DNA of 63,906 nt, filler included, from 6 parts of 6 records of this genome joined end to end with filler, not necessarily neighbours in it; one strand, 5' to 3'; counted from the whole stretch's first letter, positions 13,445-27,222 are shown. The notes: a model not told the origin generated them from the letters alone. A program made the numbers and translations.

Positions 13445-13905
13445 TGGGCGATGCCCCCTTTGATGATATCCTTGAGGGCTGCCAGATCGTTTGGCACGCG
13501 GGTCACGCGTTCCTCGCGGTCGAATAGATCAGCCATATGGGGTGGCAATGGCGGGCGCACACCTGTTGCAGCCTCGACCGCGTCGGGGAATTTGGCCGGA
13601 TGCGCAGTGGCCAATGTGATCATGGGGGTCGCCGGATCACGCAACGCTTGGGCAACGCGGACCCCGATAGCGGAATGCGGGCACAGCAATTCGTTGGTGT
13701 TGGCGTAAAATTCCTTGATCGTGGCCGATGTTTCCTCTTCCGAGACGCGGTCAGACTTGTAGGTATTTTGCAGATCGCGCAGGGCATTGTCGCCCACATC
13801 AAAGCCACCATTGGCAAGATCGTCCATCAAGCCGTTGATCGCGTCACTGTCCTGCCCATAGGCAAAATACAACGCGCGTTCAAAGTTCGAGCTGACCTGA
13901 ATGTC
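13441..13905 (-). CDS. thrC: Threonine synthase (5' truncated by contig end)
   Basis: DIQVSSNFERAL, LCPHSA, LATAHPAKFP. Confidence 0.92.
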   Translation of the reverse strand, partial: DIQVSSNFERALYFAYGQDSDAINGLMDDLANGGFDVGDNALRDLQNTYKSDRVSEEETSATIKEFYANTNELLCPHSAIGVRVAQALRDPATPMITLATAHPAKFPDAVEAATGVRPPLPPHMADLFDREERVTRVPNDLAALKDIIKGGIAQ

Positions 13906-13906
13906 C

Positions 13907-14006
13907 NNNNNNNNNNNNNNNNNNNNNNNNNNNNNNNNNNNNNNNNNNNNTTAATTAATTAANNNNNNNNNNNNNNNNNNNNNNNNNNNNNNNNNNNNNN
14001 NNNNNN
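13907..14006. other. Artificial contig linker
   Basis: N44-TTAATTAATTAA-N44, stops in all six frames. Confidence 0.99.
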
Positions 14007-14007
14007 C

Positions 14008-14877
14008 ATGGGGGATTTGGCCGCTTTTGTCGGGATTGTCGACGATGGCGGCTTTGCGGAATCGGCGCGGCGCAGGGGGGTGTCGGCCTCTACGCTCAGC
14101 CGGTCCGTCACGCGGCTGGAAGAGCAGTTGAAGGTCACACTGTTGCGGCGCACGACGCGATCCATCGAGATCACCCCCGAAGGCGCGGCAGTTCTGGCTG
14201 AGGCGCGCGAGATTTTGGACCGCAGTGAAGCCCTTCAAGAGATCGCTACCAGCGGACAGGCCCCCGCCGGGCCACTGCGCGTAAACGCACCGGTTCCTTA
14301 CGTCCTGCATGTCCTCGCCCCGCGTCTGGCTGAGTTTCACGCAAAGTATCCGGACATCCAGCTGTCGATCGACATGACAGACTCGCTGGTGGATCTGATC
14401 GGCAGTCACGCGGATGTTGCCATTCGGCTGGGCCAGCTGCCTGATAGCGACATGTTGCACCGCCCCTTGGGGCGTACAGCTTGGAAATTGGTGGCTGCGC
14501 CAGAATATCTTGATCGAAAAGGCTGGCCAAAAACACCGGCCGACCTCTCACAACTGGAGCAAGTTCGGTTCGCGGCGCCAGATCATATCAACACATTACG
14601 CTTCACAGGTCTGGCCGAGCCGGTAACGGTGCCCAGCGCCCTGACTGCGGGCAACGGAGAGGCTGTGCGCCAGATGGTCTTGGGCGGTTTGGGCATCGCC
14701 CGCTTTTCCGATTTCATGATCGCTGACGATATTCGCGCCGGGCGCTTGGTTGAATTATTCCCCGGCCAGCTTTCAGCGGACCCACTGAATATCTCAGCGC
14801 TCTACCTTACCCGCGTCTCGGGCCTGCGGCGACTGGGAGTCTTTCTTGATTGGGTGGGGGACATCGGTGGAGGCTAA
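14008..14877 (+). CDS. LysR family transcriptional regulator (CrgA-like; possibly a few codons missing at 5')
   Basis: HTH FAESARRRGVSASTLSRSVTRLEEQL, LLRRTTR, DVAIRLG. Confidence 0.92.
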   Translation: MGDLAAFVGIVDDGGFAESARRRGVSASTLSRSVTRLEEQLKVTLLRRTTRSIEITPEGAAVLAEAREILDRSEALQEIATSGQAPAGPLRVNAPVPYVLHVLAPRLAEFHAKYPDIQLSIDMTDSLVDLIGSHADVAIRLGQLPDSDMLHRPLGRTAWKLVAAPEYLDRKGWPKTPADLSQLEQVRFAAPDHINTLRFTGLAEPVTVPSALTAGNGEAVRQMVLGGLGIARFSDFMIADDIRAGRLVELFPGQLSADPLNISALYLTRVSGLRRLGVFLDWVGDIGGG

Positions 14878-14975
14878 GTTCTGCGCGCGCCTTTCAGCAT
14901 GTTTGACGCTCCCGAGCAGAGCGTGGCCTTAAAAAGCTTGCCCCCCGTTCGGCTGATTTAGACATATTTTTAGAT

Positions 14976-15037
14976 GTCCGCTTCCTGGAAGTTGCACCGC
15001 AGCGGCAAAGCCACATGCTAAAGGCAGCTTTGGGCCG
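14976..15037 (+). repeat. ~62-bp degenerate repeat, copy A
   Basis: GTCCGCTTCCTGGAAGTTGCACCGCAGC...AAAGGCAGCTTTGGGCCG. Confidence 0.75.
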
Positions 15038-15163
15038 TCAGCTCAAGGGTCATTTGTATTGATGTGATGTCGCAGAGTCTGCTTCATGCGATATGTCCAA
15101 CGACAATGTACTGCGTTAAGGTCCTGACAAGACCCAACCAAAGAACTCTGGGGGAGTAGATGA

Positions 15164-15583
15164 ATGAGATTCTCTCTAAGTGGTGCTAGCTGGCAAACCG
15201 TTGCAGCGGTCCTAGCTTTGCCGATCTCCGTGGCCGCCGCATGGTTCACATGGGACGGAAATAGTGACGCTCGTCAGATTGCCGAGCAACAAGGTTACGA
15301 GGCGTATGTCGATACTCGCATCGCCCATTGCACTTCATTGAGTCAAAGCTATGCGACCCAGAGTTGGGCGTACGGTAGAGGGAATGGCAGTCCCGATCCT
15401 CAAATAGAAGAGTTCGCACACAAAGCGGTTGCCATCGCTCGCGCTGCACGTCTGTGTCGGAACATCAATCTCGATGTCACAGAATTGAAGACCTGCATTG
15501 AAACATTGGTCGACAAACCAGTGGGGCACTTTGTCACTGAACTTGGCTCAGACGGTAATTCGTACACCAATCTTGTTTGCTGA
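15164..15583 (+). CDS. Hypothetical protein with N-terminal membrane anchor and 4 Cys
   Basis: 139 aa, GGGGAG RBS, hydrophobic N-terminus; fills the space between repeats A and B. Confidence 0.6.
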   Translation: MRFSLSGASWQTVAAVLALPISVAAAWFTWDGNSDARQIAEQQGYEAYVDTRIAHCTSLSQSYATQSWAYGRGNGSPDPQIEEFAHKAVAIARAARLCRNINLDVTELKTCIETLVDKPVGHFVTELGSDGNSYTNLVC

Positions 15584-15620
15584 CGAAGACTGCCCCAGCC
15601 TGACTATGACTTAACTGATC

Positions 15621-15683
15621 GTCCGCTCTCCGGAACGCTGCAGCACAAGTGCAGCGAATGCCAACAAGGTCTACTTTGGGCCG
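15621..15683 (+). repeat. ~62-bp degenerate repeat, copy B
   Basis: GTCCGCTCTCCGGAACGCTGCAGCAC...AAGGTCTACTTTGGGCCG (63 bp). Confidence 0.7.
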
Positions 15684-15793
15684 TTCCAGGGGCAGGTCAC
15701 GACTAACCAACGACACACAGTATCTCCATAGATCGTCGTAAACGTGATACGTTCTGAAGATTGAATAGTCGAAAATCAGAGTGGAGTAATTTG

Positions 15794-16789
15794 ATGCGAA
15801 TAATGTCTTACAACGTCGAGTGGTTCGATGATTGCTTTGAAGATGATAATTCCCTGAAGACCACGCCCGAGGCCACAAGCAAACTAGACGCTGTGGCGGC
15901 CGTCATCACGGCGATTGATCCTGACCTGATCGGCGTCACGGAGGGTCCCAACACAACTACGACGACGGGTGAGCGGGACACTGTGGCAGCACTAAAGAAT
16001 TTTGCTGCTGCCAAGGGACTTCGACAAGCAGACGCAATGATCGGGTTTCCATCCGCAGGTCGTCAGGAAATTGCGGCGATGTTCGATCCAAACGTATGTT
16101 CGTTGGCGCATGACCCAGGCGGCAGAACAGGGCACAAGACCAATCCGCGTTTCAATGAGGCTTTTCAGGCCGACAGTGATGCGGATGGCATCAAAGAGCT
16201 CTACAAGCACTATCGCCCGCCGTTGGAAGCAAAGGTCTCTCGGGCTGATGGCGGCGCGAACTTCTGGGTGCTTGTCGCGCATGCAAAGTCAAAAGGTATC
16301 TTCAGCGCAATGGATCGCGTTCACTTCGAACGAACCTCAGACCGCAATCGGCGCAAGCTTTTTGCAGAATGCTCTTCGATCCGACTGCGTGTCGACGATT
16401 GGCTGAATGAAGGCCGTTCGTTTGTCGTGATGGGCGACATAAACGACGGTCCGGGATTCGACTATTACGAGAGTCGGTTCGGACGCAGTGCTGTTGAACT
16501 AATCCTTGGCGATGTTTTCGATCTCGACGGAATGCTTCGGTATCCGATCGGACGACCAAAGTTTGGTAGATACGGCTGGGAACCCTCGACCGCGAGGTTT
16601 ACTGACAGCTTTACCGGCGACAAAGTTAACGCTCTCATTGACCATATCATCGTTTCAGCCGGCATCACGCCAGCCGATGGAGGCGGAGCGCTTGTTTGGA
16701 ACCCCTTTCAGTTGGACGCAGCAAAACCGCTGAAGCAAGTTCTCTTGGATGCTTCGGATCATTTCCCGGTTACCTACGACATCGCCTAG
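15794..16789 (+). CDS. Endonuclease/exonuclease/phosphatase (EEP) family protein
   Basis: MSYNVEW, DLIGVTE, AHAKSK, VMGDIND, LIDHI, ASDHFPV; GGAG RBS before ATG 15794. Confidence 0.9.
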   Translation: MRIMSYNVEWFDDCFEDDNSLKTTPEATSKLDAVAAVITAIDPDLIGVTEGPNTTTTTGERDTVAALKNFAAAKGLRQADAMIGFPSAGRQEIAAMFDPNVCSLAHDPGGRTGHKTNPRFNEAFQADSDADGIKELYKHYRPPLEAKVSRADGGANFWVLVAHAKSKGIFSAMDRVHFERTSDRNRRKLFAECSSIRLRVDDWLNEGRSFVVMGDINDGPGFDYYESRFGRSAVELILGDVFDLDGMLRYPIGRPKFGRYGWEPSTARFTDSFTGDKVNALIDHIIVSAGITPADGGGALVWNPFQLDAAKPLKQVLLDASDHFPVTYDIA

Positions 16790-16945
16790 CCGCCGAAATT
16801 AGATTGGGGTGCCTCGCTATCAGGGTTTTGGCACCTGAGCCCAAGGTAAGGGCCGTTACTGGGCGGCTCGTCCGTCATGGCTTGGCCACATCACCCTTGG
16901 CTTAGAGGTCCGTCGATCGGAGTTCCGGCAGGTTTAGCAGCCAAA

Positions 16946-17007
16946 GTCCGCTTCCGGAAAGCCGCAGTGCAGCACCAAGAGCCTGGTTGAAGGTCGGCTT
17001 TGGGCCG
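16946..17007 (+). repeat. ~62-bp degenerate repeat, copy C
   Basis: GTCCGCTTCCGGAAAGCCGCAGTGCAGC...AAGGTCGGCTTTGGGCCG; internal AAAGCCG/CGGCTTT inverted pair. Confidence 0.75.
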
Positions 17008-17120
17008 TCAAAGACAAGGGCCGACGCCGCGACTTTGCAGATGCCGCGCCGCATCGGAGGTAGGCAGTGAGCCCAAAGTACCGGATGCTGCAAGGTGAAG
17101 GAATGGCAGTTCAACCGTCG

Positions 17121-17873
17121 TCACGGTTCAGGCATCCGCCACTCTTTGGGTGCTTCGCGGGTATAACCTTCGAAAAGAAATCCTCCATCCCGTTCCAAAA
17201 CACGTTCGCAAAGGCGGATAACGGGATCGGTATCCTCTTTTATGAACGCAGCCTCAAAAGCATCTGTAAAACTTTGGTGGAACTCGGGGTCGACGCCCAT
17301 AAGTCTTCTAGGAATACTCTTGCCCTTGGCAGACCACTGACTTTGGGAACGTAGAAAATGATCTGCGAGGGCGGCGTAAAGACCAGAAACCACAATACGA
17401 AGCTCGTCGGAATTGCGTGGCTCGCGGATGTCTTCGACCATATTGCTGATCGCATAACGCGAATTTTCACGTTCTTTCTGGCCCCACGGTATCGGGCCCT
17501 CCTCCAAAACTCGACGTGCCAGACTTTTGATTAGACTTCCAGTTTCCGTTTCGGCAGGTAGTTCGATGCCCTCACTCACCATATTCGGTAGAGATGGCAC
17601 TCCTGACAAGCGATCCACCTCGCGAAAGAAATACTCCAGAGTTTGAGCATCGTGTATGAACGCCTCAACAGGCCAGCCGTCAAAGACGAAAGATTGCCGT
17701 CGGGCATTCTCGACGTTTTCAAAAACAACGACGAGGTCAAGGTCAGAATAGGCCGTTGCTTCATCACGAACCACCGATCCGGCAAGCAAAAATGCGCTTG
17801 CCGTCGGAAAGAACTGTTCTCGAATTTTAGTGGCCACAGACAAGGCCGCTGACAGCTTTTGGCGCAATGACAA
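17121..17873 (-). CDS. Nucleotidyltransferase domain protein (Pol-beta superfamily)
   Basis: GSVVRDEATAYSDLDL (GS...DxD) motif plus helical C-terminal part; the TTG start may be 17867 given RBS spacing. Confidence 0.85.
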   Translation of the reverse strand: MSLRQKLSAALSVATKIREQFFPTASAFLLAGSVVRDEATAYSDLDLVVVFENVENARRQSFVFDGWPVEAFIHDAQTLEYFFREVDRLSGVPSLPNMVSEGIELPAETETGSLIKSLARRVLEEGPIPWGQKERENSRYAISNMVEDIREPRNSDELRIVVSGLYAALADHFLRSQSQWSAKGKSIPRRLMGVDPEFHQSFTDAFEAAFIKEDTDPVIRLCERVLERDGGFLFEGYTREAPKEWRMPEP

Positions 17874-18049
17874 ACTCCCGGATGGTATGTGGGAAACGTA
17901 GGCTATCGCTCAACTCTATCAGGCGATTATTGGCGGCCAACAACTTATTTTGAAACTATCGAAGCCGCCATTGGTGCAGGCGCAGCGAAATGGTGCTTTG
18001 GTCCGCAGTGCAGACCTCTGCAGCCCAAAATGTTGCATCTTCGATCAAT

Positions 18050-18111
18050 GTCTACCTCAACTGGCCGCACCGCAGCATCAGGAGCGTGGGGGCAATGTCC
18101 GGTCTGGGCCG
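18050..18111 (+). repeat. ~62-bp degenerate repeat, copy D
   Basis: GTCTACCTCAACTGGCCGCACCGCAGC...AATGTCCGGTCTGGGCCG; same 62-bp length as A and C. Confidence 0.65.
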
Positions 18112-18204
18112 TCACTTCTTCTTTCCACGGTTAAAAATCTTCCAAAGCCCCCAAATAATAAGGGCTACAATGATAAGTCCTGGCAATCCAATGTTATTCA
18201 GCAA
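18112..18204 (-). CDS. 30-aa single-TM micropeptide MLNNIGLPGLIIVALIIWGLWKIFNRGKKK, TatA-like N-terminus
   Basis: TTG start with GGAGG 8 nt upstream; TM helix plus basic tail; TGA abuts repeat D; below the ORF-track length cutoff. Confidence 0.7.
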   Translation of the reverse strand: MLNNIGLPGLIIVALIIWGLWKIFNRGKKK

Positions 18205-18302
18205 GCTCGTTTCCTCCGGTTGTTTTTGTTTGCAACAAAACCTTACGAAAAAAAGGGGCGAGGCGACAACCAAATCCCCCGTTACTGGCCTATGACCCGA
18301 AT

Positions 18303-18362
18303 GGCCGCTTCAGTGACGCTACGCTGCAAAAGGTTCAGAAGGCGAACGGCAGGTTTGGGCCG
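18303..18362 (+). repeat. ~62-bp degenerate repeat, copy E
   Basis: GGCCGCTTCAGTGACGCT...AACGGCAGGTTTGGGCCG (60 bp). Confidence 0.6.
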
Positions 18363-18383
18363 CTACCCCCATTCACCACCCCC

Positions 18384-18658
18384 CTACTCAAGGAAAGTGG
18401 CGTGCGGCCCCCTACCACTATATCGAAATCATAGGCCTCTTTCACATCCGCCGTCTGCGGATCATGCACCCTGCCGATGTTGCGTTCAAACGCCTCGCCC
18501 ATCAGGATCGCCATCGGATCGCTGGTGTTGTTCGGTTCATCAGGGAAATACGTCTGGGTAATCAGCCGCGATGATCCGCCGCTGACGGACACATGGATAT
18601 GCTTGGGCCGCCAGCGTCCGATATCTGGCCGCGCCAGATAGACACCCGGGCTGATCGC
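18384..18658 (-). pseudogene. 3' fragment of intradiol dioxygenase beta subunit, a diverged duplicate of 24207-24482
   Basis: Translates AISPGVYLARPDIGRWRPKHIHVSVSGGSSRLITQTYF...FDIVVGGR; lacks the 5' part; 1-bp deletion just before the stop. Confidence 0.88.
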
Positions 18659-18934
18659 AAGATCAAGGCTTCAGGGCGACGTGTTTGTCGTGTTCCGGGC
18701 CAGCATCTATCCACGCAGCGGTCACTGACGAAAGACCAGATTTTGCCCAAGCTTCAGTGCGCGCCCCGGAAACCAAAGGTTCATCAATATTCGTGATGCG
18801 TGCATGCAAAACGCACTGTGTATTCGTCACCCGCTCTATGCTAACTCATCCTTGTGGGATTTGGTTCGATTCCAGTTAACGGCGACATCCGGGCTTTGCC
18901 GGGTTTCACGCGATAGAAAATGGAAGTGCCCGGA

Positions 18935-19924
18935 ATGCCCGACTATACGTTTGCCATATATGAGTTTGCGGATCTGAGAGCCGTGTCCGGCTCGCCGCTG
19001 ACAACAGGATCTACGAACGGTGCATCGGGCTCTTTTGTTGTTAGAAACACAGCCGTTCCAGTCTCGATCACTGTGAACGATAACGACCCGAACTTTGAAG
19101 ACGGCTATGTAGACTATACTGGCGGAGCGCGTAGCCAGACACTGGTATCGAGCGTGGTCCTAAATGGCGTAACTTATCCCGCCGGGTCAACGATCGAGCT
19201 TGAGTTTAAGGTGTCGACCGATTCGGGTTTGACCTTTGACTATATCCGGATCAACAACGTGAACGTCGGGATCGGTGGCGTGACCCTGCCCCAGATGGGC
19301 ACGACATATCGTATCACCGGTACAACGGACGGGCAAAACGACGCTTGGACGGACTTGGCCTGTTTCGTGCAGGGCACCTTGATCGAGACAAAGAATGGCC
19401 TGCGCGCGATCGAGGATTTGGTGGCAGGCGATCGTTTGCGGACACGAGATAACGGCTGGCAGCCGCTGCGCTGGATCGGCCATCGCAACCTGTCGCGCAC
19501 GGAACTGCAGGGCATGCCTGACCTTGCGCCAATCCGGTTTGAGGCTGGTTCCATCGGCAACAGCCGTGCTCTTTCTGTTTCGCCACAGCACCGCATTCTG
19601 GTGGAAGGCTGGCGCGCGCAGTTGAATTTCGGCACCGATAGTGTGCTGGTTCCTGCAAAATCGATGGTGAACGGGACGACAGTGCGTCAGGATACATCCG
19701 GGCAACCGGTGACCTATTACCACATTATGTTCGATGCCCATCAGATCGTCTTTTCCAACGGATGCCCGACCGAGAGTTTCCACCCCGGCGACGTCGGTTT
19801 GCGCGGCCTTGAAACAGCGGTGCGCGCGGAACTGGGGTATCTGTTCCCCGAGATTGTCGGCCAATTCGGCGATACGGCACATCAAGTCATACGCGTAGCC
19901 GAAGCCCGCGCCATCAATTGGTAA
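18935..19924 (+). CDS. Hint-domain (bacterial intein-like, Hint_2 type) protein
   Basis: ACFVQGTLIET, VSPQHRIL, TYYHIMFDAHQIVFSNGCPTESFHPG; beta-rich N-terminal domain; alternative start 18920. Confidence 0.9.
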   Translation: MPDYTFAIYEFADLRAVSGSPLTTGSTNGASGSFVVRNTAVPVSITVNDNDPNFEDGYVDYTGGARSQTLVSSVVLNGVTYPAGSTIELEFKVSTDSGLTFDYIRINNVNVGIGGVTLPQMGTTYRITGTTDGQNDAWTDLACFVQGTLIETKNGLRAIEDLVAGDRLRTRDNGWQPLRWIGHRNLSRTELQGMPDLAPIRFEAGSIGNSRALSVSPQHRILVEGWRAQLNFGTDSVLVPAKSMVNGTTVRQDTSGQPVTYYHIMFDAHQIVFSNGCPTESFHPGDVGLRGLETAVRAELGYLFPEIVGQFGDTAHQVIRVAEARAINW

Positions 19925-20320
19925 ATTTTCGCGCTACGGGTGGCCGGCCGCCGTCCTGATCACAGCCCGCTGGAAGGCTGGACGCTCTACGGCGGGTGAT
20001 GCGGCTCTCTGATCTTGGTTTCCCCGTCACGAGACGACAAGGCCGCAACGCGTGGTAGCTCACCTACCATCGCAAATAGCACAATTTTGCCTCGTAGGTG
20101 CAGACGTCAGGCGGCGGCGCTTGCGATCAGCTTCCCAAAGGCTCCGCCAGAATGGGCCGTTCGTGTCACTTTTCAGTTGTTAGGCACTAAGGACCGCCAC
20201 GTGGACAAAGCTGCCTTCCATTGCAAGGCACCAATGTCCGGTTTAGCAAACCGTTCATAAACGGTGGTTTCTGTCACGGTCAGAAACTCGTTCCAAGAAC
20301 CACGTTTTCGAGCTGACCTG

Positions 20321-21196
20321 TTATTTGTCATCCGATCTGAAATAAGTCGGACACCATATCAGACGCCCAAAGCAGATGCGTAACCGGTCTGTCCATGTCC
20401 GGCAACGGCGCATGTCGCGTAGGATGCTGCGGTATTCGATGACGTTGATTGTGACCGGGTTGTTGGTCTCTATGTTCACGGTCAAGCCATAGGTGACCGC
20501 ATCTTCCTCGCGTTGGAATGTGCCAAACAGCTTGTCCCAGATGATCAGCACGCCACCGTAATTCTTGTCGAGGTATTTTCGGTTCGATCCGTGATGGACC
20601 CGACGGACCGAGGGGGTGTTGAACACCTCGTCCAGCCACCCCAGTTTATGCACGCGTTCAGAATGAACCCAGTGCTGATACTGCGCCACCAGAACAAGGC
20701 CGATGATGGCTTGGAACGGGTTGAACCCCAGCAGAATCATCGGGATCAGGAATATCCATTCGAACAACCCCTCTACCCAACTGAGCCGGAAGCCAACCGT
20801 CAGGTTATAGTCCTCTGACGAATGGTGAACGCTGTGATTGGCCCAGAGGATGCGACGCTCGTGCTCGATCCGGTGCAGCCAATAATAGGTGAAATCGGCC
20901 GCGACAAAGGCGATGATCCATGTCCACCAGAGCATGGGAATTTCCCAAGGCACAAGCCAGAAGAACGGCAGCAGTCCGATCAGTCCGATAGACGCGAACA
21001 CGGTTCCCTCCAGCACCTGCCCGACGACGAAGATTGCGCAGTTTGCCGCCGTATCCTTCCAGCGCCGCTCCTTGCGGGTGAACAGATCGAGCATCACTTC
21101 TCCGACTGTGAGAGCCAAGTTTATGAGAAATATCGTGCCGACGATGGTCATCAGTGACGATGTGGCAAAGAGTTCGACAAGCGCTTCAATGGTCAT
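20321..21196 (-). CDS. Sterol desaturase / fatty acid hydroxylase family (alkylglycerol monooxygenase-like)
   Basis: HRIEH, HSVHH, QHWVH, NYGGVLIIWDKLFGT; last His box reads RRVHH; alternative GTG start 21205. Confidence 0.85.
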   Translation of the reverse strand: MTIEALVELFATSSLMTIVGTIFLINLALTVGEVMLDLFTRKERRWKDTAANCAIFVVGQVLEGTVFASIGLIGLLPFFWLVPWEIPMLWWTWIIAFVAADFTYYWLHRIEHERRILWANHSVHHSSEDYNLTVGFRLSWVEGLFEWIFLIPMILLGFNPFQAIIGLVLVAQYQHWVHSERVHKLGWLDEVFNTPSVRRVHHGSNRKYLDKNYGGVLIIWDKLFGTFQREEDAVTYGLTVNIETNNPVTINVIEYRSILRDMRRCRTWTDRLRICFGRLIWCPTYFRSDDK

Positions 21197-21287
21197 GTCC
21201 GACACTTCTGATCCGAACGAAAGCCGCAGGCGAAGCTTTGAACCTCGTGATTGTGCATTTTCATTTCCGTATGCCTCTGCTATTTAT

Positions 21288-21309
21288 TCGGTGAACGAAT
21301 GTTCATCGA
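21288..21309. promoter_or_regulatory. Candidate TetR operator palindrome
   Basis: TCGgTGAAC-gaat-GTTCAtCGA in the divergent desaturase/TetR intergenic region. Confidence 0.5.
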
Positions 21310-21343
21310 GATAGTCTGCGCATGTGCGAATGAAAGGGTCAAC

Positions 21344-21949
21344 ATGGAAGATCAGGTGCCTCAGCGGACCAACCGCGACAAGACGACTCGCGCACGCCGC
21401 GCACTGCTGGTCGAGACGGCAATCGCCTGTTTTGTCGAAAAGGGCCTTGCACGGACGGGAATGCGCGACATCGCGAAACAGGCAGGGGTGAGCGTAGGGA
21501 ACCTTTACAACCACTTTCCGGGCCGTGGCGATCTGATCGCCGAGATTGCGCAGATCGAAACGGCAGGACTTGACGACATCGTGGCTCAAGTCGCCAAATG
21601 CGCCGACCCACACAAGGCGATCGATACCTTGGTCAAAAGCTACTTTCTGTATTGCGCTGACCCCGTTTCGGCGGTCCTGACCGTCGAGATCACCTCCGAA
21701 GCCCTGCGCAATCCGGCGATAGAGGACCTGTTCAGCGGTAACCGGGCACTGTTGGTCAATACGCTGGCAAAAGCTCTCTCGCAAAGCAGCGGAAACGCCA
21801 ATCGCGCAACAGTGACTGCCGGTCTTGTCATCGATACTATCGAGGGTTTCGCGCTGCGGATCGGGTTGACCGGAAAGAAGCCGCGCAAGCGAGATGCCGA
21901 GGCACTGATATCCTTTGTGCGCAACGCCCTGACGCCTGGGGCTGACTGA
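21344..21949 (+). CDS. TetR/AcrR family transcriptional regulator
   Basis: HTH TGMRDIAKQAGVSVGNLYNHF. Confidence 0.92.
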   Translation: MEDQVPQRTNRDKTTRARRALLVETAIACFVEKGLARTGMRDIAKQAGVSVGNLYNHFPGRGDLIAEIAQIETAGLDDIVAQVAKCADPHKAIDTLVKSYFLYCADPVSAVLTVEITSEALRNPAIEDLFSGNRALLVNTLAKALSQSSGNANRATVTAGLVIDTIEGFALRIGLTGKKPRKRDAEALISFVRNALTPGAD

Positions 21950-21950
21950 T

Positions 21951-23006
21951 ATGCGCCGCTTGCTGTTGATCGCTGCCGGTCTTGCAGCAATTGCCTTGTT
22001 CGGTCTCGGGGCAATCGTCGCATTTTCGCGGATCACGGATTTCGAGCTGCCGGAAATTACGCAGCAAACGTTGTCGTTTAGCGATAGCGGTAACAGGCTG
22101 GAAGGAACGTTGATCACCGCGTCTGCTGATGGTCCCACCGTGCTTTTGGTTCATGGCGACGGCGCGCGGGACCGGTGGTCTGACGATGGATACCTGCCGC
22201 TCGTCAACACGCTGCTCGACGCCGGAATTTCGGTGTTCAGTTGGGACAAGCCCGGTGTGGGTGCTTCCACAGGAAACTGGCTGCATCAGTCCATGACTGA
22301 TCGGGCCAATGAGACTGTTGCCGCCCTCGCTGCTGTGCGGCAGGCTACGGGTTTCGAAGACCGCATCATCGGTCTGCTTGGGTTTTCACAGGCTGGCTGG
22401 GTTTTGCCACGTGTCCCCGCGCTGACCGATGATGCCTCGTTTCTGGTCTTGATGGGCGGCGCTATCAACTGGCAGGCTCAGGGGCGATACTACGCCACCA
22501 TTCGGTTAACGCACGAAGGTCAGACATCTACGCGGATCGCGGCCGAACTGCTGCGACAAGCGCAGGCACAGTCGGAATGGCTCAGGTCCGATGCAACATA
22601 TGCGGATTACAGCGCGGCAAGTCGACCGGAGGACGGTTTTTTGTCAGCAAACAGGTTTCGTTTTGCACAATTGAACTATCGGGAGGATGCCCGCGAAGAC
22701 ATTGCCAAATTGACCTTGCCAGTGCTGGTTCTGTCAGGTGCCGCAGACCTCAACGTTGACTCAAGGGAAACCATCGCTGTCTACACGCAGCTTTTGAAAG
22801 CTGTTCATCCGCTCAACGCATTTCATCTTGTGCCGAACGCAAGCCATTCGCTGATGTCGGCCAGCTATCTCAACTACCAGCTACCGGATCAAATTCCGCT
22901 TTTGGTGAAGGCAAGGTTCATTCTGGCGGGGCGCGATGCCTACGAGGGGGATGTTCTGAAAACCGTTACTGACTGGGTTTTTGACGTGTCTCAGGCCGCG
23001 CCATGA
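21951..23006 (+). CDS. Alpha/beta hydrolase with N-terminal signal/anchor
   Basis: LVHGDG, WDKPGVG, GFSQAG nucleophile elbow, GAADLNV, NASHSL. Confidence 0.87.
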   Translation: MRRLLLIAAGLAAIALFGLGAIVAFSRITDFELPEITQQTLSFSDSGNRLEGTLITASADGPTVLLVHGDGARDRWSDDGYLPLVNTLLDAGISVFSWDKPGVGASTGNWLHQSMTDRANETVAALAAVRQATGFEDRIIGLLGFSQAGWVLPRVPALTDDASFLVLMGGAINWQAQGRYYATIRLTHEGQTSTRIAAELLRQAQAQSEWLRSDATYADYSAASRPEDGFLSANRFRFAQLNYREDAREDIAKLTLPVLVLSGAADLNVDSRETIAVYTQLLKAVHPLNAFHLVPNASHSLMSASYLNYQLPDQIPLLVKARFILAGRDAYEGDVLKTVTDWVFDVSQAAP

Positions 23007-23100
23007 TGATGCGCGTCCCGTGTGTAGCGATCATAACTTCCGGGGATTGCGAAATACTGGCTTCGTTCCACGTAACAGCGAGACTCGGAACTTTCATCTC

Positions 23101-23960
23101 ATGCTGAACGACATCCCGCTGACAGTTTCATCTCTCCTTCGCGCCTTCCGGTATCGCATCGGGCTGACGTGGCTCTTGACGCTATGCGAGACAGTTCTGA
23201 TTGCAATTGTCCCCCTCTTCGTCGGGTTTGCCATCGACGGGTTGTTGCCTGAGAATACTGGCGCATTGTTTCAGTCGGTGATTATCATGGCCGCCCTAAT
23301 CGTGGTCAGCTTCGCGCGCCGGGCCTACGACACCCGCGTGTTTGGCACTATTCGGGTAGAAGTTGGAAAGGCGCAGGCCGCACGCGCCCGGGATCAACCT
23401 GTCTCGTTGTCTCGATATTGAATGCCCGCCTTGGCATGGGACGCGAGATAGTCGACTTCATGGAAAACGACTTGCCGCTCGTGATGGCAGCTCTGATCCA
23501 GCTCATCGTCTCAATCATCGTATTGTTCTCATTTGGTCCGATGCTGGCCATAGCCGGGATTATTGCGGTCGTGGCGATGCTGCTCACCTATGCGCCGTTC
23601 CACCAAAATTTCTACCGATTGAACGGACATCTGAATTACCATATGGAGCGGCAGGTTGGTATACTGGTTACTCGCTGACCGCAAAGGCTGTTGTCGCATT
23701 TGCTACATCTGTGCAGAGTTGAGGTGCGTCTCTCGGACACTGAATCTTTCCTCTACGGAGCGATCTTCATCGTCCTTCTGGGCCTCGTCGTGTTCAATCT
23801 TTGGTCCGCCACAACTGTCTTGTCTATCACGACCTGCACGATCTTTTCCATCGTCAGCTACTCGTTGGAATTTGTCGACTCCGCGCTTGTACTTCCGGTT
23901 ACCCTACAGGGATGGTCGCGCCTTTCGGAAATCACGAAGCGGATCAACCCGGACGTTTAA
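23101..23960 (+). pseudogene. ABC transporter six-TM-domain protein, disrupted
   Basis: Three ORF pieces; frameshift from an 8-bp duplication at 23401-23416; in-frame TGA at 23676-23678; RRAYDTRVF and LSDTES motifs. Confidence 0.75.
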
Positions 23961-24164
23961 CGCTTTTCGGACGACGCTCATGTTTCCTAAAAGTCCGTTT
24001 TTGGAACGTCAGCAAAACACCTGATACAACGCTGCCACAAACCCGGTTTTAAACTCAAGCAGTTGATGAAGGTTTTTGGCGCTACCATGATTGCAGACAT
24101 AAGCCGCATCGCAGAATTTCGGGAATGAGGGCTCGAACCCTGCCGTTGGCTGCGGACGTCACGC

Positions 24165-24181
24165 AGTTCCGCTAAGGGCCG
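24165..24181 (+). repeat. Terminal repeat half-site next to the dioxygenase gene end
   Basis: AGTTCCGCTAAGGGCCG, similar to the right end of repeats A-E; a left-half-like GTCCGTTTTTGGAACG lies at 23993. Confidence 0.45.
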
Positions 24182-24206
24182 ACCACCCACATTCACCACC
24201 CCACCC

Positions 24207-24875
24207 CTACTCAAAGAACGTCGCGCTCCGTCCGCCGACCACGATATCAAAGTCATAGGCCTCTTCTACCCCTGCCGTTTGCGGGTCACGCAGTCTGCCG
24301 ATGTTGCGCTCGAACGCGTCGCCCATCAAGATCGCCATCGGATCGCTCGCGTTGTTCGGCTCATCTGGGAAATACATCTGGGTGATCAGCCGCGATGATC
24401 CGCCGCTGACCGACACATGGATATGTTTGGGCCGCCAGCGTCCGATATCGGGCCGCGCCAGATACGCACCTGGGCTGATCGCCCAGAACCTATATCGCCC
24501 CTCCCCATCGGTCAGCACCCGCCCCATCCCAAGGTGGTTGTCGTCCAGCTGCAGGCCGGAATGATCCTCGACATGGCGGTAGCGGCCATAGTGGTTGGCG
24601 CTCCAAACCTCGAGCAGTGCGCCCGCCACCGGACGGCCCGATGCACTGCGCACCCGGCCTGTCACTTCGATCGGAACGCCATCGGCGCGGGGGCGGTCCG
24701 GTGCTGTGCGGGTCATGTCCCATTCATGCGGGTTCGTCGCATAACGTGCGGGCACGACGGGGACAAAACTGGCCCGTGCGATGCCGGGGATCAGGCGCAG
24801 CGGCTGGCGCGGGGTGCGTTGATCTGACGTGTTGTCGGTCGGGCCAATGCCCAGAATGCGTCCTTGCTTGGCCAT
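24207..24875 (-). CDS. Intradiol ring-cleavage dioxygenase, PcaH-like beta subunit
   Basis: All four Fe ligand motifs: WSANHYGRYRH, PGAY, WRPKHIH; also LITQMYF. Confidence 0.88.
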   Translation of the reverse strand: MAKQGRILGIGPTDNTSDQRTPRQPLRLIPGIARASFVPVVPARYATNPHEWDMTRTAPDRPRADGVPIEVTGRVRSASGRPVAGALLEVWSANHYGRYRHVEDHSGLQLDDNHLGMGRVLTDGEGRYRFWAISPGAYLARPDIGRWRPKHIHVSVSGGSSRLITQMYFPDEPNNASDPMAILMGDAFERNIGRLRDPQTAGVEEAYDFDIVVGGRSATFFE

Positions 24876-24878
24876 GGC

Positions 24879-25478
24879 TCAGCTCTCCAGATCGTCAAAG
24901 AATGGGGTCTCGCCGGGGCCCGCCATGACGATGTCAAAGACATAGACCTCGGCCCCGCTGGCGGTGCGCCCGTCATGGCGTGCAATCAACTTGGGCGCGT
25001 CATTGCCAACCGATTGCAGAACGGGATCGGCGTCATTGCCCGCCTGCCCGTCAAAAAACACCTGCGTGACGATCCGGCTGATCCCGTCGGAAAAGATCGT
25101 GATCGTGATGTTTGGCGCGCGCCCCGGCGCAGCCCCCGGCAAGATGGTGCGGAATTCATAAGCACCCGACGCTGTACGCAACCGGCCATAGCCGTCGAAC
25201 CACGGGTCGATCCCCGCGTCCCCTTGGTTTGCAGGCGTGCGGTAGACGCCCGTTGCGTTGGCTTGCCAAAACTCCAGCACGGCACCATTGGCCAGTTCGC
25301 CGTGACGGTCCAGAACACGGCCGCGCAAGATGATCCGCGTGCCCTCGGCCGCGCCCACGACACCGGGGGCAAAGCGGGTCAGATCCTCGAGCGCGGGATC
25401 GGCGAAATAGATCGGGAAATACGGCCCGCAGGTGTCTTCATTCGTCGCTGGTAAAAGGTTGGATGCCGGATCGGTCAT
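24879..25478 (-). CDS. Intradiol ring-cleavage dioxygenase, PcaG-like alpha subunit
   Basis: TCGPY, LEFWQANATG, FRTILPG, ADPVL, FDIVMAGPGETPFFD; GGAGG RBS. Confidence 0.87.
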   Translation of the reverse strand: MTDPASNLLPATNEDTCGPYFPIYFADPALEDLTRFAPGVVGAAEGTRIILRGRVLDRHGELANGAVLEFWQANATGVYRTPANQGDAGIDPWFDGYGRLRTASGAYEFRTILPGAAPGRAPNITITIFSDGISRIVTQVFFDGQAGNDADPVLQSVGNDAPKLIARHDGRTASGAEVYVFDIVMAGPGETPFFDDLES

Positions 25479-25504
25479 CGCCTGTCCTCCATTGTCTTTG
25501 GTCC

Positions 25505-25520
25505 GTTTTGCATATTAAAC
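25505..25520. promoter_or_regulatory. Candidate IclR operator 1
   Basis: GTTTTGCATATTAAAC, 14/16 identical to 28598-28613. Confidence 0.55.
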
Positions 25521-25552
25521 ACCAAGGAACGCAATACGGAAACCAGTCGCCT

Positions 25553-26341
25553 ATGACCAAAGCGTCCAATCATGATGTCTATTTCGTTCCCGGTCTGCAT
25601 CGGGGTCTTCGGGTTCTCGAAATTCTGGGCGCAGCAGAAACGCCCATGTCGCTGAGCGATATTGCCCGCGCGATGGAGCTGAGCCGGAGTTCGGCGTTTC
25701 GTCTGGTCTATACTTTGCGGCAGATGGAGTTCATTCGCGAGGCGGAGCAGGCCAATACCTTTACCCTTGGCGCGCGCGTTCTGAACCTTGGCTTTGCCTA
25801 TCTGAACCAGCAACCCATCACCGCGATTGCCCGCCCCATTCTTGCAACCCTGCGCGACGAAACGGGCGTTTCCACGCATCTCAGCGTGCTTGAGGGCGAC
25901 GATGTCTTGTACCTTGTCAGCCATCAGGCCCGGTCTGGATATGTGTCCAACATGCGCACCGGCACCCGCACGCAGGCCTATGCGTCGGCGATTGGCTGGT
26001 GTTTGCTGGGTGACAAGACCGACACTGAACTCAGCGCCTTTGCCGAGACCCAGAACTGGCATCGCTATACGCAACACACGCCGATGGATGCGGCCAGCCT
26101 TGCCGCCCGCGTGACGCAGGCGCGCACAGCGGGCTTTGTTGTGTCGCGTGGTTTTCGCGAAGCGGGCGGGTCGAGCATCGCCGTGCCCGTGCGCGACAAT
26201 AGCGGCGCGATCGTGGCCTGCGTGAACCTGTCCGGCCCCGACAGCGGGTATGATTTCGACCGGGTAGAAAGCTTTTACCTGCCCAAAACCCAAGACGCGG
26301 CGCTGCAAATCTCGCGCGCTTTGGGGTACCAGGGCAGCTAG
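25553..26341 (+). CDS. IclR family transcriptional regulator
   Basis: PGLHRGLRVLE, HTH LSDIARAMELSRSSAFRL, ASAIG, SIAVPVRD. Confidence 0.93.
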   Translation: MTKASNHDVYFVPGLHRGLRVLEILGAAETPMSLSDIARAMELSRSSAFRLVYTLRQMEFIREAEQANTFTLGARVLNLGFAYLNQQPITAIARPILATLRDETGVSTHLSVLEGDDVLYLVSHQARSGYVSNMRTGTRTQAYASAIGWCLLGDKTDTELSAFAETQNWHRYTQHTPMDAASLAARVTQARTAGFVVSRGFREAGGSSIAVPVRDNSGAIVACVNLSGPDSGYDFDRVESFYLPKTQDAALQISRALGYQGS

Positions 26342-26343
26342 GC

Positions 26344-27222
26344 TCATCGCGTGATGCCCAGAATGGCGCGGGCCTCGTCCGGGGTGGCAAGCGCGCCGCC
26401 CAGATCGCCGATGATCCGCGCCGCTTTTCCCACCAATTGCGCGTTGCTTTCACAATGCTGGCCCTTGGCAATATGGGCCGTGTCTTCCATGCCGATGCGG
26501 ATATGCCCGCCCAGCAACCACGCCTGCGCCAGCATCGGAAACGCCACGCGGCCAATGCCAAAGGCGGCCCATTCGGTGCCGTCGGGCAGTTGACTGACCA
26601 GATAGGCCATCGTTGCCGGATTGGCGACCGCACCAAAGCGCACGCCCAGCACCATTTGCACCATCAGCGGCGTGCGCAAAACACCGCGCGCGACGAAATC
26701 CTTGACCATGTGCAGATCACCGCTGTCGAAAACCTCTATCTCGGGTTTGACGCCAGCGTCGTAGATACGGCCCGCCATGATCTCGAGGTTGCGCGGCGCG
26801 TTGATCACGGACGCCTGACCCGACCACATGGTGTTGAAATCCAGCGTGCAAATATCGGGCTGCAAAGCCTCGACATGGGCCACGCGTTTTTCAGGCGCGC
26901 ATAGGGTCGAACCGGGTGCGGCGATCTGTGGATCATCCTCCGACGGGATAAACCGCCCGCCCTCGCCCGTTGTCAGGTTCAACAGCACGTTGGCGTTTTC
27001 GGCACGGATACGCGCCACCAGTTCTTCATACAGATCAAGCCGCATGGACCCTTTGGCGCTTTCCGGATCACGCACATGCAGATGCACAATGGCAGCACCC
27101 GCCGTTGCGGCATCCAGCGCTTGGCGCGCGATCTGTTCGGGGGTGACGGGTAAATGCGGGCTGATTTCTGGCGTCATCAGGTTGCCGGTGATCGCGGCGG
27201 TCAGGATTGTCTTGCGCGTCAC
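26344..27222 (-). CDS. Beta-keto acid cleavage enzyme (BKACE/DUF849, Kce family)
   Basis: TAAITG, AIVHLHVRD Zn motif, NLTTG, PEIEVFD, RIGMED; GTG start with GGAG RBS. Confidence 0.92.
   Translation of the reverse strand: MTRKTILTAAITGNLMTPEISPHLPVTPEQIARQALDAATAGAAIVHLHVRDPESAKGSMRLDLYEELVARIRAENANVLLNLTTGEGGRFIPSEDDPQIAAPGSTLCAPEKRVAHVEALQPDICTLDFNTMWSGQASVINAPRNLEIMAGRIYDAGVKPEIEVFDSGDLHMVKDFVARGVLRTPLMVQMVLGVRFGAVANPATMAYLVSQLPDGTEWAAFGIGRVAFPMLAQAWLLGGHIRIGMEDTAHIAKGQHCESNAQLVGKAARIIGDLGGALATPDEARAILGITR

Follow-up and report, generated by a model that had tools for sequence, protein, structure and literature searches.

Co-oriented 62-bp repeats associated with a 210-residue tyrosine recombinase are candidate cassette recombination sites of an integron-analogous system in marine Rhodobacterales

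INTRODUCTION

Integrons combine a tyrosine recombinase, IntI, with short co-oriented sites (attC) that delimit mostly single-gene, unrelated cassettes. Cassettes are gained and lost exactly at a conserved end motif, the same cassette can be found in different arrays, and arrays often lie without an integrase nearby. IntI is about 320 aa long and has an IntI-specific insertion, attI and Pc lie beside a divergent intI at the end of the array, and the attC sites have RYYYAAC/GTTRRRY ends and a folded single-strand hairpin. Here, we describe an array of a comparable general layout in a 63,906-nucleotide stretch of DNA (the window), where unrelated small genes at positions 14976 to 18362 are separated by five copies of a repeat of about 62 bp that ends in TGGGCCG, and we relate these repeats to a family of 210-residue tyrosine recombinases.

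Parts of such a layout are known from other systems. The pdif sites, which bound XerC/XerD modules on Acinetobacter plasmids, are 28-bp, dif-like sites of alternating orientation served by the host XerC/XerD. Their gene modules are bounded by short recombinase-type sites, and most have no dedicated transposase. The Xer-type "simple" recombinases (archaeal XerA, PDB 4a8e and 5hxy; XerH) act at a core made of a short inverted repeat with a spacer of about 6 nt, and the small tyrosine invertases FimB and FimE have about 200 aa and a minimal N-terminus. Small insertion sequences (IS) and miniature inverted-repeat transposable elements (MITEs) are a further point of comparison. Concerning the bacterial class in question, a passage of Cury et al. 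(2016; PMC4889954) states that all 243 alphaproteobacterial genomes were devoid of integrons, In0 elements and degenerate integron cassette arrays (CALINs), an absence which that passage calls "extremely puzzling".

RESULTS

Five co-oriented repeats separate unrelated genes

The window consists of six contigs joined by 100-base runs of N around a TTAATTAATTAA linker (13907 to 14006 and four further places), and features cannot be read across the joins. The array lies in the second stretch (14007 to 35786; 21.8 kb), where gene calls were assigned by Pfam. An earlier note on this DNA had described five co-oriented copies of a repeat of about 62 bp and had proposed that they were recombination sites for gene capture by an integron-analogous system in trans, the module boundary being GGGCCG. 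To score the repeats we used R1, a sequence-only covariance model made from the five window copies and seven copies of other genomes. All five copies were found at the described positions on the plus strand, with E-values of 1.7e-15 to 1.6e-9, which are partly circular because the training set includes these copies; independent support for the family comes from untrained copies that R1 recovers in other genomes. The next-best match in the 21.8-kb stretch had an E-value of 0.08 with filters off, and the best one in the other five stretches 0.68, so that none of these five holds a copy. The bare end motif CTTTGGGCCG, at no more than one mismatch, was mildly enriched (15 matches vs 8.0 ± 2.8 expected). 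The features of the array are as follows.

14008 to 14877, plus strand: LysR-family regulator (Pfam HTH_1 and LysR_substrate), the conserved left flank of the array
14976 to 15037, plus strand: repeat A, an "R arm" (R1 51.9 bits), the conserved first site past LysR
15038 to 15683, plus strand: cassette 1, an orphan open reading frame (ORF) of 139 aa (15164 to 15583, plus strand) with repeat B
15621 to 15683, plus strand: repeat B (R1 32.9 bits)
15684 to 17007, plus strand: cassette 2, an ORF for an EEP-family nuclease/phosphatase (15761 to 16789, plus strand; Pfam Exo_endo_phos) with repeat C
16946 to 17007, plus strand: repeat C (R1 match)
17008 to 17115, minus strand: 31-nt spacer and L arm (17039 to 17115), a putative remnant of a recombinase unit (its upstream side) that is without the gene
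17121 to 17873, minus strand: nucleotidyltransferase (NTase)-domain protein, 250 aa (Pfam NTP_transf_2)
18050 to 18111, plus strand: repeat D (R1 43 bits)
18112 to 18273, minus strand: cargo of cassette 4, a 53-aa ORF from a TTG start, whose stop abuts repeat D
18303 to 18362, plus strand: repeat E, the last array site (R1 39.4 bits)

The claim of one module per interval holds for 14976 to 18362, where every interval has one ORF, the sites measure about 60 bp and the cassettes range from 0.25 to 1.3 kb. It fails to the right of 18362, where intervals are not bounded by a 62-bp repeat. Weaker copies that had been placed in that region fared no better: the one finishing at 20159 gave no R1 match at E ≤ 10, and the sub-motifs near 20233 (R1 E 1.1) and 23990 gave no significant model match. 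At 24181, a GGGCCG junction is indeed present (24176 to 24181), and homology to the flank of copy E begins there, but it is not an end of the 62-bp repeat, being preceded by a sequence that weakly resembles the second arm type described below (24094 to 24154; E 0.0025 with model R2).

Across 51 aligned sites, three blocks were conserved, GTCCGC at the outer end, GCnGCAnnGCAGC in the centre and AAnGnCnGCTTTGGGCCGTC at the inner end, and TGGGCCG was nearly invariant. The window copies begin with GTCCGC and finish in TTTGGGCCG, directly followed by TC, and copies A and C have a 13-nt identity, CTTTGGGCCGTCA, in common. Repeat A carries, in addition, a conserved AT-rich left extension of 17 nt (GACATATTTTTAGAT-like; 14959 to 14975), which moves with it in four other genomes and three metagenome contigs. 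A shorter relative of the repeat lies just ahead of copy D (17975 to 18005, plus strand), with a GCAGC-type block, a short spacer and the end TTTGGTCCG replacing TTTGGGCCG. The same end motif is also seen at 23799 and 25496, and the segment 17962 to 18022 aligns in reverse orientation to two further loci (L001, 9286 to 9345; L002, 7802 to 7847).

As had been claimed, the repeats have no attC-type RYYYAAC/GTTRRRY ends, neither strand being readable as R''/R'. The Rfam check proposed in the earlier note also came out negative, with no match of any Rfam 15 covariance model at E ≤ 1 in 13900 to 27000. No stable DNA fold was observed on either strand (z-scores of -1.24 to +2.41 vs shuffled sequence), and RNAalifold on 12 aligned copies gave five terminal pairs with no compensatory changes. 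Together, these results indicate that the repeats behave as a double-stranded DNA motif and not as a folded element. A number of other identities were considered and rejected. A hairpin in the central GCnGCAnnGCAGC block showed no covariation, with pairing in 76.9% of cells vs 77.2% in shuffles. A coding remnant was rejected because the copies differ by indels and have no common frame (all frames inspected by eye). For a tRNA 3' fragment, as in a tycheposon-like island scar, a GGTTCGAGCCC-like string near 24135 was the candidate, and it forms no T-arm by eye. Repetitive extragenic palindromes and their mosaic elements (REP/BIME) do not fit copies that have no hairpin and are clustered and co-oriented in the window and the genomes sampled, and for an integron attC site both the required ends and the single-strand hairpin are missing. 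Lastly, a terminator was rejected since the hairpin is limited to sites beside recombinase genes and mostly has no T-run downstream; it nevertheless remains a caveat.

The repeat family tracks one recombinase family in related genomes

A gapped pattern made from copies A to C found 11 loci in a species-representative genome collection. Four were alphaproteobacterial and all four had the internal blocks (Sulfitobacter sp. CW3, Tateyamaria sp. 1078, a Halocynthiibacter metagenome-assembled genome [MAG] and a Hyphomicrobiales MAG), and the remaining seven, from unrelated phyla and with no R1 match, were taken as chance. The model scan of relatives that the earlier note had proposed was made in 121 evenly sampled genomes of the family at an R1 threshold of E ≤ 1e-4. 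Sites were present in 42 of them, in co-oriented clusters: the scan gave 93 hits, 30 of which had a neighbour within 15 kb, and all 27 such pairs were on the same strand. Individual arrays gave the same picture. All 13 sites were co-oriented within 16.5 kb in genome G235, and in the 10.7- to 35-kb region of the Tateyamaria contig, whose array covers about 10.7 to 27.7 kb, the plus strand had 11 of the 12 matches at E < 0.1. When plasmids were searched for near-identity to the window DNA, only the LysR gene matched.

It had also been suggested that repeat presence be correlated with a recombinase or HUH family. The repeat does track a single recombinase family, which is a tyrosine recombinase and not HUH. 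At a recombinase threshold of E ≤ 1e-30, site and recombinase were both present in 27 of the 121 genomes, the repeat only in 15, the recombinase only in 16 and neither in 63 (odds ratio 7.1; Fisher p 2.6e-6, uncorrected for phylogeny).

The Tateyamaria array contains a 223-codon ORF that encodes a Phage_integrase domain, is convergent with the repeat and stops 20 nt short of the GGGCCG end of one site; the protein likely has 210 aa, counted from an internal ATG. A 210-aa Phage_integrase protein in this convergent position, about 20 nt from the GGGCCG end, was found in Tateyamaria, the Halocynthiibacter MAG and genomes G005, G116, G165 and G235, with a gene-to-site spacing of 24 nt recurring in G005 and G116. 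Two of the three recombinase copies in Tateyamaria adjoin a full GGGCCG end, and the third lies beside a partial repeat end. The first four genomes or records inspected all had homologues of 63 to 95% identity adjoining a site or close to one.

The recombinase consists of little more than a catalytic domain

Intact copies were 210 to 211 aa long at 21 of the 23 loci checked, and R61, K89, H158, R161, H184 and Y193 were invariant in these 21 copies. The protein matches Pfam PF00589 with 60.9 bits (cut-off 27.1) and has the R, K, HxxR, H/W and Y residues of the tyrosine recombinase superfamily. Its sole sequence match in the PDB was XerA (4a8e; E 7.7e-4), over the catalytic domain only (XerA residues 110 to 266). 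Since only about 30 residues precede the catalytic domain, which is too few for a core-binding domain, the enzyme has none. An AlphaFold model (mean pLDDT 64.8) had its best fold matches among Xer recombinases, XerA first, at TM scores of up to 0.39, which is weak support for this relationship. Models of the described families scored far below their cut-offs: 23.5 bits vs 265 for the integron integrase (TIGR02249; residues 141 to 217 only), 49.8 vs 335.15 for XerC, 31.2 vs 329.6 for XerD and 21.3 vs 222 for the Fim-type DNA invertases.

The Tateyamaria paralogues are 91 to 95% identical as proteins and about 78% as DNA, which points to purifying selection, and together with the invariant catalytic residues this makes the enzyme look active. 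The family is large, with 831 clusters at 50% identity (E ≤ 1e-30) and homologues on 438 plasmid records, including those of Sinorhizobium, Pantoea, Escherichia and Vibrio. The best 120 relatives listed are 81 to 96% identical, mostly 210 aa long, and bear only generic names such as "tyrosine-type recombinase/integrase". In the genomes with matches (77 matches in 43 genomes), about 19 copies were counted with internal stops and many others were fragments, indicating that this gene often decays, as it seems to have done in the window.

Some further features of recombinase loci were observed. A leader about 30 to 70 nt upstream of the recombinase starts (loci L049 to L077) is strongly conserved. 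In almost all copies it has a purine-rich stretch and a short, GTCAACGTCGGGTTGTCGTTG-like hairpin, and it may control expression of the gene. On the conjugative plasmid pP30_b of Phaeobacter inhibens P30 (L093; 43246 to 49974), two inverted 210-aa recombinase genes surround a 5.5-kb metabolic block. An Escherichia coli IncFIB plasmid (L092; NZ_CP116920.1, 11382 to 11984) encodes a 200-aa "site-specific integrase" that is 57% identical to the Rhodobacterales enzyme and sits among hypothetical genes beside IS26; the family thus reaches enterobacterial plasmids.

Sites beside recombinase genes complete a palindrome and are paired with a second arm

Where a recombinase gene is adjacent, the GGGCCG end of the repeat completes a perfect palindrome, GGGCCGyC-N6-GrCGGCCC. 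In 16 of the 18 recombinase loci that are at least 73% identical, the DNA past the stop codon reads GGGCCGyC, 5 to 8 bases, GrCGGCCC and then the 62-bp repeat in reverse complement. At 65 to 68% identity, all six loci (L071 and L073 to L077) have another palindrome, GGCGnnCGGC-N3-4-GCCGTTCGCC, which suggests that the enzyme and its site specificity diversify together. Of the 51 sites aligned, eight had the full palindrome, eight had an adjacent convergent recombinase gene, and seven had both. This coincidence indicates that the repeat supplies half of an inverted-repeat core together with an arm of about 50 bp, and that the second half travels with the recombinase gene.

A second conserved element, the L arm, lies about 85 to 170 nt upstream of many recombinase genes (14 loci aligned). 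Its blocks resemble those of the repeat, or R arm (a CATTCG-like outer end, GCAGCATC and an inner TTGGGCTC), and it is inverted relative to the repeat. R2, a model of the L arm, gives 55 bits for the window copy at 17039 to 17115 on the minus strand, this copy being part of the model; it begins 31 nt past copy C. In G235, the L arm lies 29 to 47 nt from the GGGCCG end at 7 of 13 sites, forming a composite of R arm, about 30 nt and L arm, and an eighth site has the recombinase gene between the arms. The G165 locus has, in this order, LysR (81% identical), repeat A, 4.4 kb of other cargo, a full-palindrome site, an intact recombinase gene (88% identical) and the L arm, with which the window sequence at 17039 to 17115 aligns. 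By this comparison, the window looks like the G165 platform minus its recombinase gene, which would have been lost. The statement that the contig has no recombinase is correct for the gene itself (best tblastn E 0.52 in the window), but it overlooked the apparent relic of the recombinase unit at 17039 to 17115.

Strain differences and shared cassettes have their borders at GGGCCG

We compared the locus with LysR and repeat A in five genomes, i.e., the window, Sulfitobacter CW3, a plasmid of Sulfitobacter DSM 110093, G099 and G165. In the four other genomes, the LysR DNA is 81 to 90% identical and followed by repeat A, which is thus present past LysR in all five. Strain differences, a check proposed in the earlier note, break at GGGCCG: all ten pairwise alignments of LysR and repeat A stop 0 to 9 nt past the GGGCCG of A, and the DNA downstream is unrelated in nine of the ten genome pairs. 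Repeat A with its left extension (14959 to 15037) was also found in contigs of three metagenomes (X2, X3 and X8) that are without this LysR gene. CW3 has a copy of repeat A (two substitutions) joined at GGGCCGTCA to the DNA that follows C in the window, so that CW3 is without exactly 15038 to 17007, i.e., cassettes 1 and 2. The NTase segment of CW3 is 97.3% identical to the window and its LysR gene only 89.6%, and repeat D has a near-identical copy in CW3, after which the DNA is different.

A further check proposed there, on cargo elsewhere with the same borders, was positive as well. The G235 array has the EEP cassette at 89% identity with another repeat upstream of it, and a seawater-metagenome contig from X2 (1706 nt) spans 15678 to 17007 with unlike DNA on both sides. 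In four contigs of X2, X3 and X8, the match stops at 17007/17008, with unlike DNA beyond. Two metagenome contigs, from ice (X3) and sediment (X8), hold 16988 to 18048, i.e., the L arm and the NTase gene, between other repeat variants and with unlike flanks. These two lose similarity at 18048, the outer end of D, and not at GGGCCG, so either the borders are not exclusively at the inner end or the sites diverge fast. As a module boundary, GGGCCG accordingly does not account for all breakpoints, these two being exceptions.

A 5.8-kb segment lies between two copies of a dioxygenase gene end

To the right of repeat E, the region has the following features.

18335 to 18592, minus strand: 85-aa 3' fragment of a dioxygenase (ORF and Pfam)
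18363 to 18658, minus strand: displaced copy of the dioxygenase downstream region and 3' end, 87% identical to 24197 to 24482
Right of the dioxygenase fragment, in this order: Hint_2 protein, fatty-acid hydroxylase, TetR regulator, alpha/beta hydrolase and ABC membrane-domain fragment (Pfam)
24094 to 24181, plus strand: weak L-arm-like relic (24094 to 24154) and the GGGCCG junction, the start of homology
24207 to 25478, minus strand: two intact Dioxygenase_C genes, the first at 24207 to 24875 (Pfam Dioxygenase_C)

The two copies of the dioxygenase end are direct copies, and the homology between them starts at a GGGCCG in each place; the segment 18363 to 24181 hence behaves as one large insertion of 5.8 kb at a target a short way past the dioxygenase gene. 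No R arm belongs to the segment, the only arm-like sequence in it being the weak relic at 24094 to 24154. Judged from the sequence, the segment looks as if it carries the dioxygenase end of another lineage, a previous host, from which it would have arrived.

Regarding the cargo of the array itself, neither the 139-aa ORF (15164 to 15583) nor the 53-aa ORF (18112 to 18273) had a match in Pfam or PADLOC. For anti-phage defence content, PADLOC gave only weak NTase-motif matches.

DISCUSSION

We consider it probable, at roughly 0.7, that the repeats are cassette recombination sites of an integron-analogous system, which would act in trans in the window. The co-oriented clusters, the breakpoints, the shared cargo and the co-occurrence with a recombinase all support this proposal of the earlier note, including its GGGCCG boundary and the missing attC features. 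The best explanation for the R arms is that they serve as double-stranded sites of the 210-residue, essentially catalytic-domain-only tyrosine recombinases common in marine Rhodobacterales.

From the sites and their neighbourhoods we infer binding by this enzyme, a crossover inside or beside GGGCCGyC and circular intermediates. Two recombinase monomers would bind the palindromic core and exchange strands there. The recombinase would bind the core, and probably the arm blocks too, of both a resident site and the site on a circular cassette, and strand exchange would take place within GGGCCGyC or beside it. Cassettes in circular form, each with one or a few genes, would integrate and thereby give directly repeated sites, between which recombination could excise cassettes again, and cycles of integration and excision would build co-oriented arrays with borders at GGGCCG. 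Co-orientation, the GGGCCG borders and the cassettes common to several arrays fit such a mechanism. In the window, an array of A, the 139-aa ORF, B, the EEP gene and C would have run up to a recombinase unit, of which repeat C and the upstream arm remained when the gene was lost. A second short array of the NTase gene, D, the small peptide gene and E would follow, joined to the downstream end of a dioxygenase gene, seemingly a target site. Movement in the window would now need a recombinase in trans.

A number of observations weigh against this reading. In four sequencing runs, all covered as assembled contigs, no circular or deletion junction was seen. The window itself has no recombinase gene, and its five copies hold the first half of the palindrome only (second half in 0 of 5). 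The palindrome could be merely the terminator hairpin of the recombinase gene, inherited with it. The cassette scheme gives no role to the L arm or to the R-L composite, and the X3 and X8 contigs with the NTase gene lose similarity at the outer end of D. Among the surveyed genomes, the odds ratio of 7.1 ignores relatedness, no more than 11 of the 93 site hits have a recombinase hit within 20 kb, and 15 of the 42 site-positive genomes have no such hit at the threshold used. Finally, cargo here is found in either orientation, unlike most integron cassettes.

In the chief rival explanation, the repeats are relic inverted ends of a small IS- or MITE-like element, made up of a recombinase unit of about 0.9 kb (R arm, gene and L arm) and a gene-less R-L derivative of about 170 bp. 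Such an element would insert repeatedly beside earlier copies, and the intervening genes would be bracketed and not mobilised. Related R and L arms do face each other around the recombinase gene, the gene-less composite is found at 7 of the 13 G235 sites and once in the window, and genomes carry multiple recombinase copies and fragments, of which about 19 of 77 have internal stops. We nonetheless regard this explanation as rather unlikely, for the breakpoints are at the inner GGGCCG end, whereas a transposing unit would be bounded by the outer ends, and four of the five window sites are solo R arms without an L arm. Strict co-orientation (27 of 27 pairs) is predicted by integration of circles, and single cargo genes recur elsewhere with the same borders. 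The Tateyamaria paralogues, moreover, differ by about 22% in DNA and are not recent transposition copies.

Much less probable still is that the repeats are an ordinary intergenic motif, i.e., a terminator, regulatory site, REP-like sequence or small RNA, with breakpoints that arose through homologous or microhomology-mediated exchange. The repeats do sit between genes, the copy next to a recombinase gene makes a GC-rich hairpin able to terminate transcription, and the 13-nt identity of A and C (CTTTGGGCCGTCA) could aid illegitimate recombination. Against this stand the lack of a stable fold, covariation or Rfam match, the density of the repeats (five copies within 3.4 kb, the remaining 60 kb of the window being free of them), their co-orientation independent of gene direction, and a physical and genomic association specific to one recombinase family. 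A CALIN with unusual attC sites would likewise have a single ORF per interval, co-oriented sites of about 60 bp and cassettes of 0.25 to 1.3 kb. We hold this to be very nearly out of the question, since no copy has RYYYAAC/GTTRRRY ends or a hairpin, the associated recombinase has 210 aa and 23.5 bits on an integron-integrase model with a cut-off of 265, and the cited passage of Cury et al. (2016; PMC4889954) gives 243 alphaproteobacterial genomes without integron, In0 or CALIN.

Cassette recombination sites remain our preferred reading, and integrons are the system that the locus most resembles. Like them, it combines a tyrosine recombinase with short co-oriented sites around mostly single-gene, unrelated cassettes, gains and loses cassettes exactly at a conserved end motif, has the same cassette in different arrays, and often has no recombinase gene near the array. 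Co-oriented sites, single-ORF cassettes and gain or loss at the site were found in the five window copies, in 27 of 27 pairs and in the CW3 difference at GGGCCGTCA. It departs from integrons in its 62-bp sites, which have neither R''/R' core sequences nor a folded single-strand hairpin, in a recombinase of 210 aa that has no core-binding domain and scores far below the IntI model cut-off, and in its second arm type. In an integron, attI and Pc lie beside a divergent intI at one end of the array; here, the recombinase gene, where present, runs convergent to the sites and is found within arrays.

The remaining systems share less with it. The sites here are longer than pdif sites (about 62 bp), have different sequence blocks, are co-oriented in 27 of 27 pairs, and go with a small recombinase of their own, which falls far short of the XerC and XerD model cut-offs, although both systems have gene modules bounded by short recombinase-type sites, most of them without a dedicated transposase. 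The Xer-type recombinases give the best sequence and fold matches, the latter weak (TM 0.39; model mean pLDDT 64.8), keep the same catalytic R, K, HxxR, H and Y, and have a comparable short inverted-repeat core with a spacer of about 6 nt. Unlike theirs, however, the 210-aa enzyme has no core-binding domain and aligns only with XerA residues 110 to 266, and its sites, which are found in arrays, have some 50 bp of conserved sequence beyond the core. FimB and FimE are similar in their size and minimal N-terminus, but the enzyme reaches 21.3 bits on their model (cut-off 222), and its sites are direct repeats that delimit cassettes and not inverted repeats around a promoter. With MITEs and small IS, the locus shares inverted, related arms and the composite of about 170 bp, which looks like a gene-less derivative of the recombinase unit. 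In contrast to these elements, the enzyme is a tyrosine recombinase and not a DDE or HUH transposase, variation has its borders at the inner arm ends, and most window copies are solo arms. Full-text searches of the literature, which did not reach subscription journals or supplementary files, gave no description of this recombinase-site system.

On balance, we lean toward the view that Alphaproteobacteria and, by the plasmid hits, other Proteobacteria own a widespread, undescribed gene-capture platform. In it, a 210-residue recombinase would move cassettes at double-stranded sites of about 62 bp with a GGGCCGyC-N6-GrCGGCCC core and so build integron-like arrays, on chromosomes and plasmids alike, and the window would be an array after loss of the recombinase gene. 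It would give a meaning to a very large set of generically named proteins (831 clusters and 438 plasmid records), and would provide a very compact recombinase-plus-site pair for genome engineering. If active, the platform would be a second way to capture genes as integrons do, by a different mechanism, in a class without integrons, and it would account for the small gene islets that vary between strains of the Roseobacter group, which is of ecological importance.

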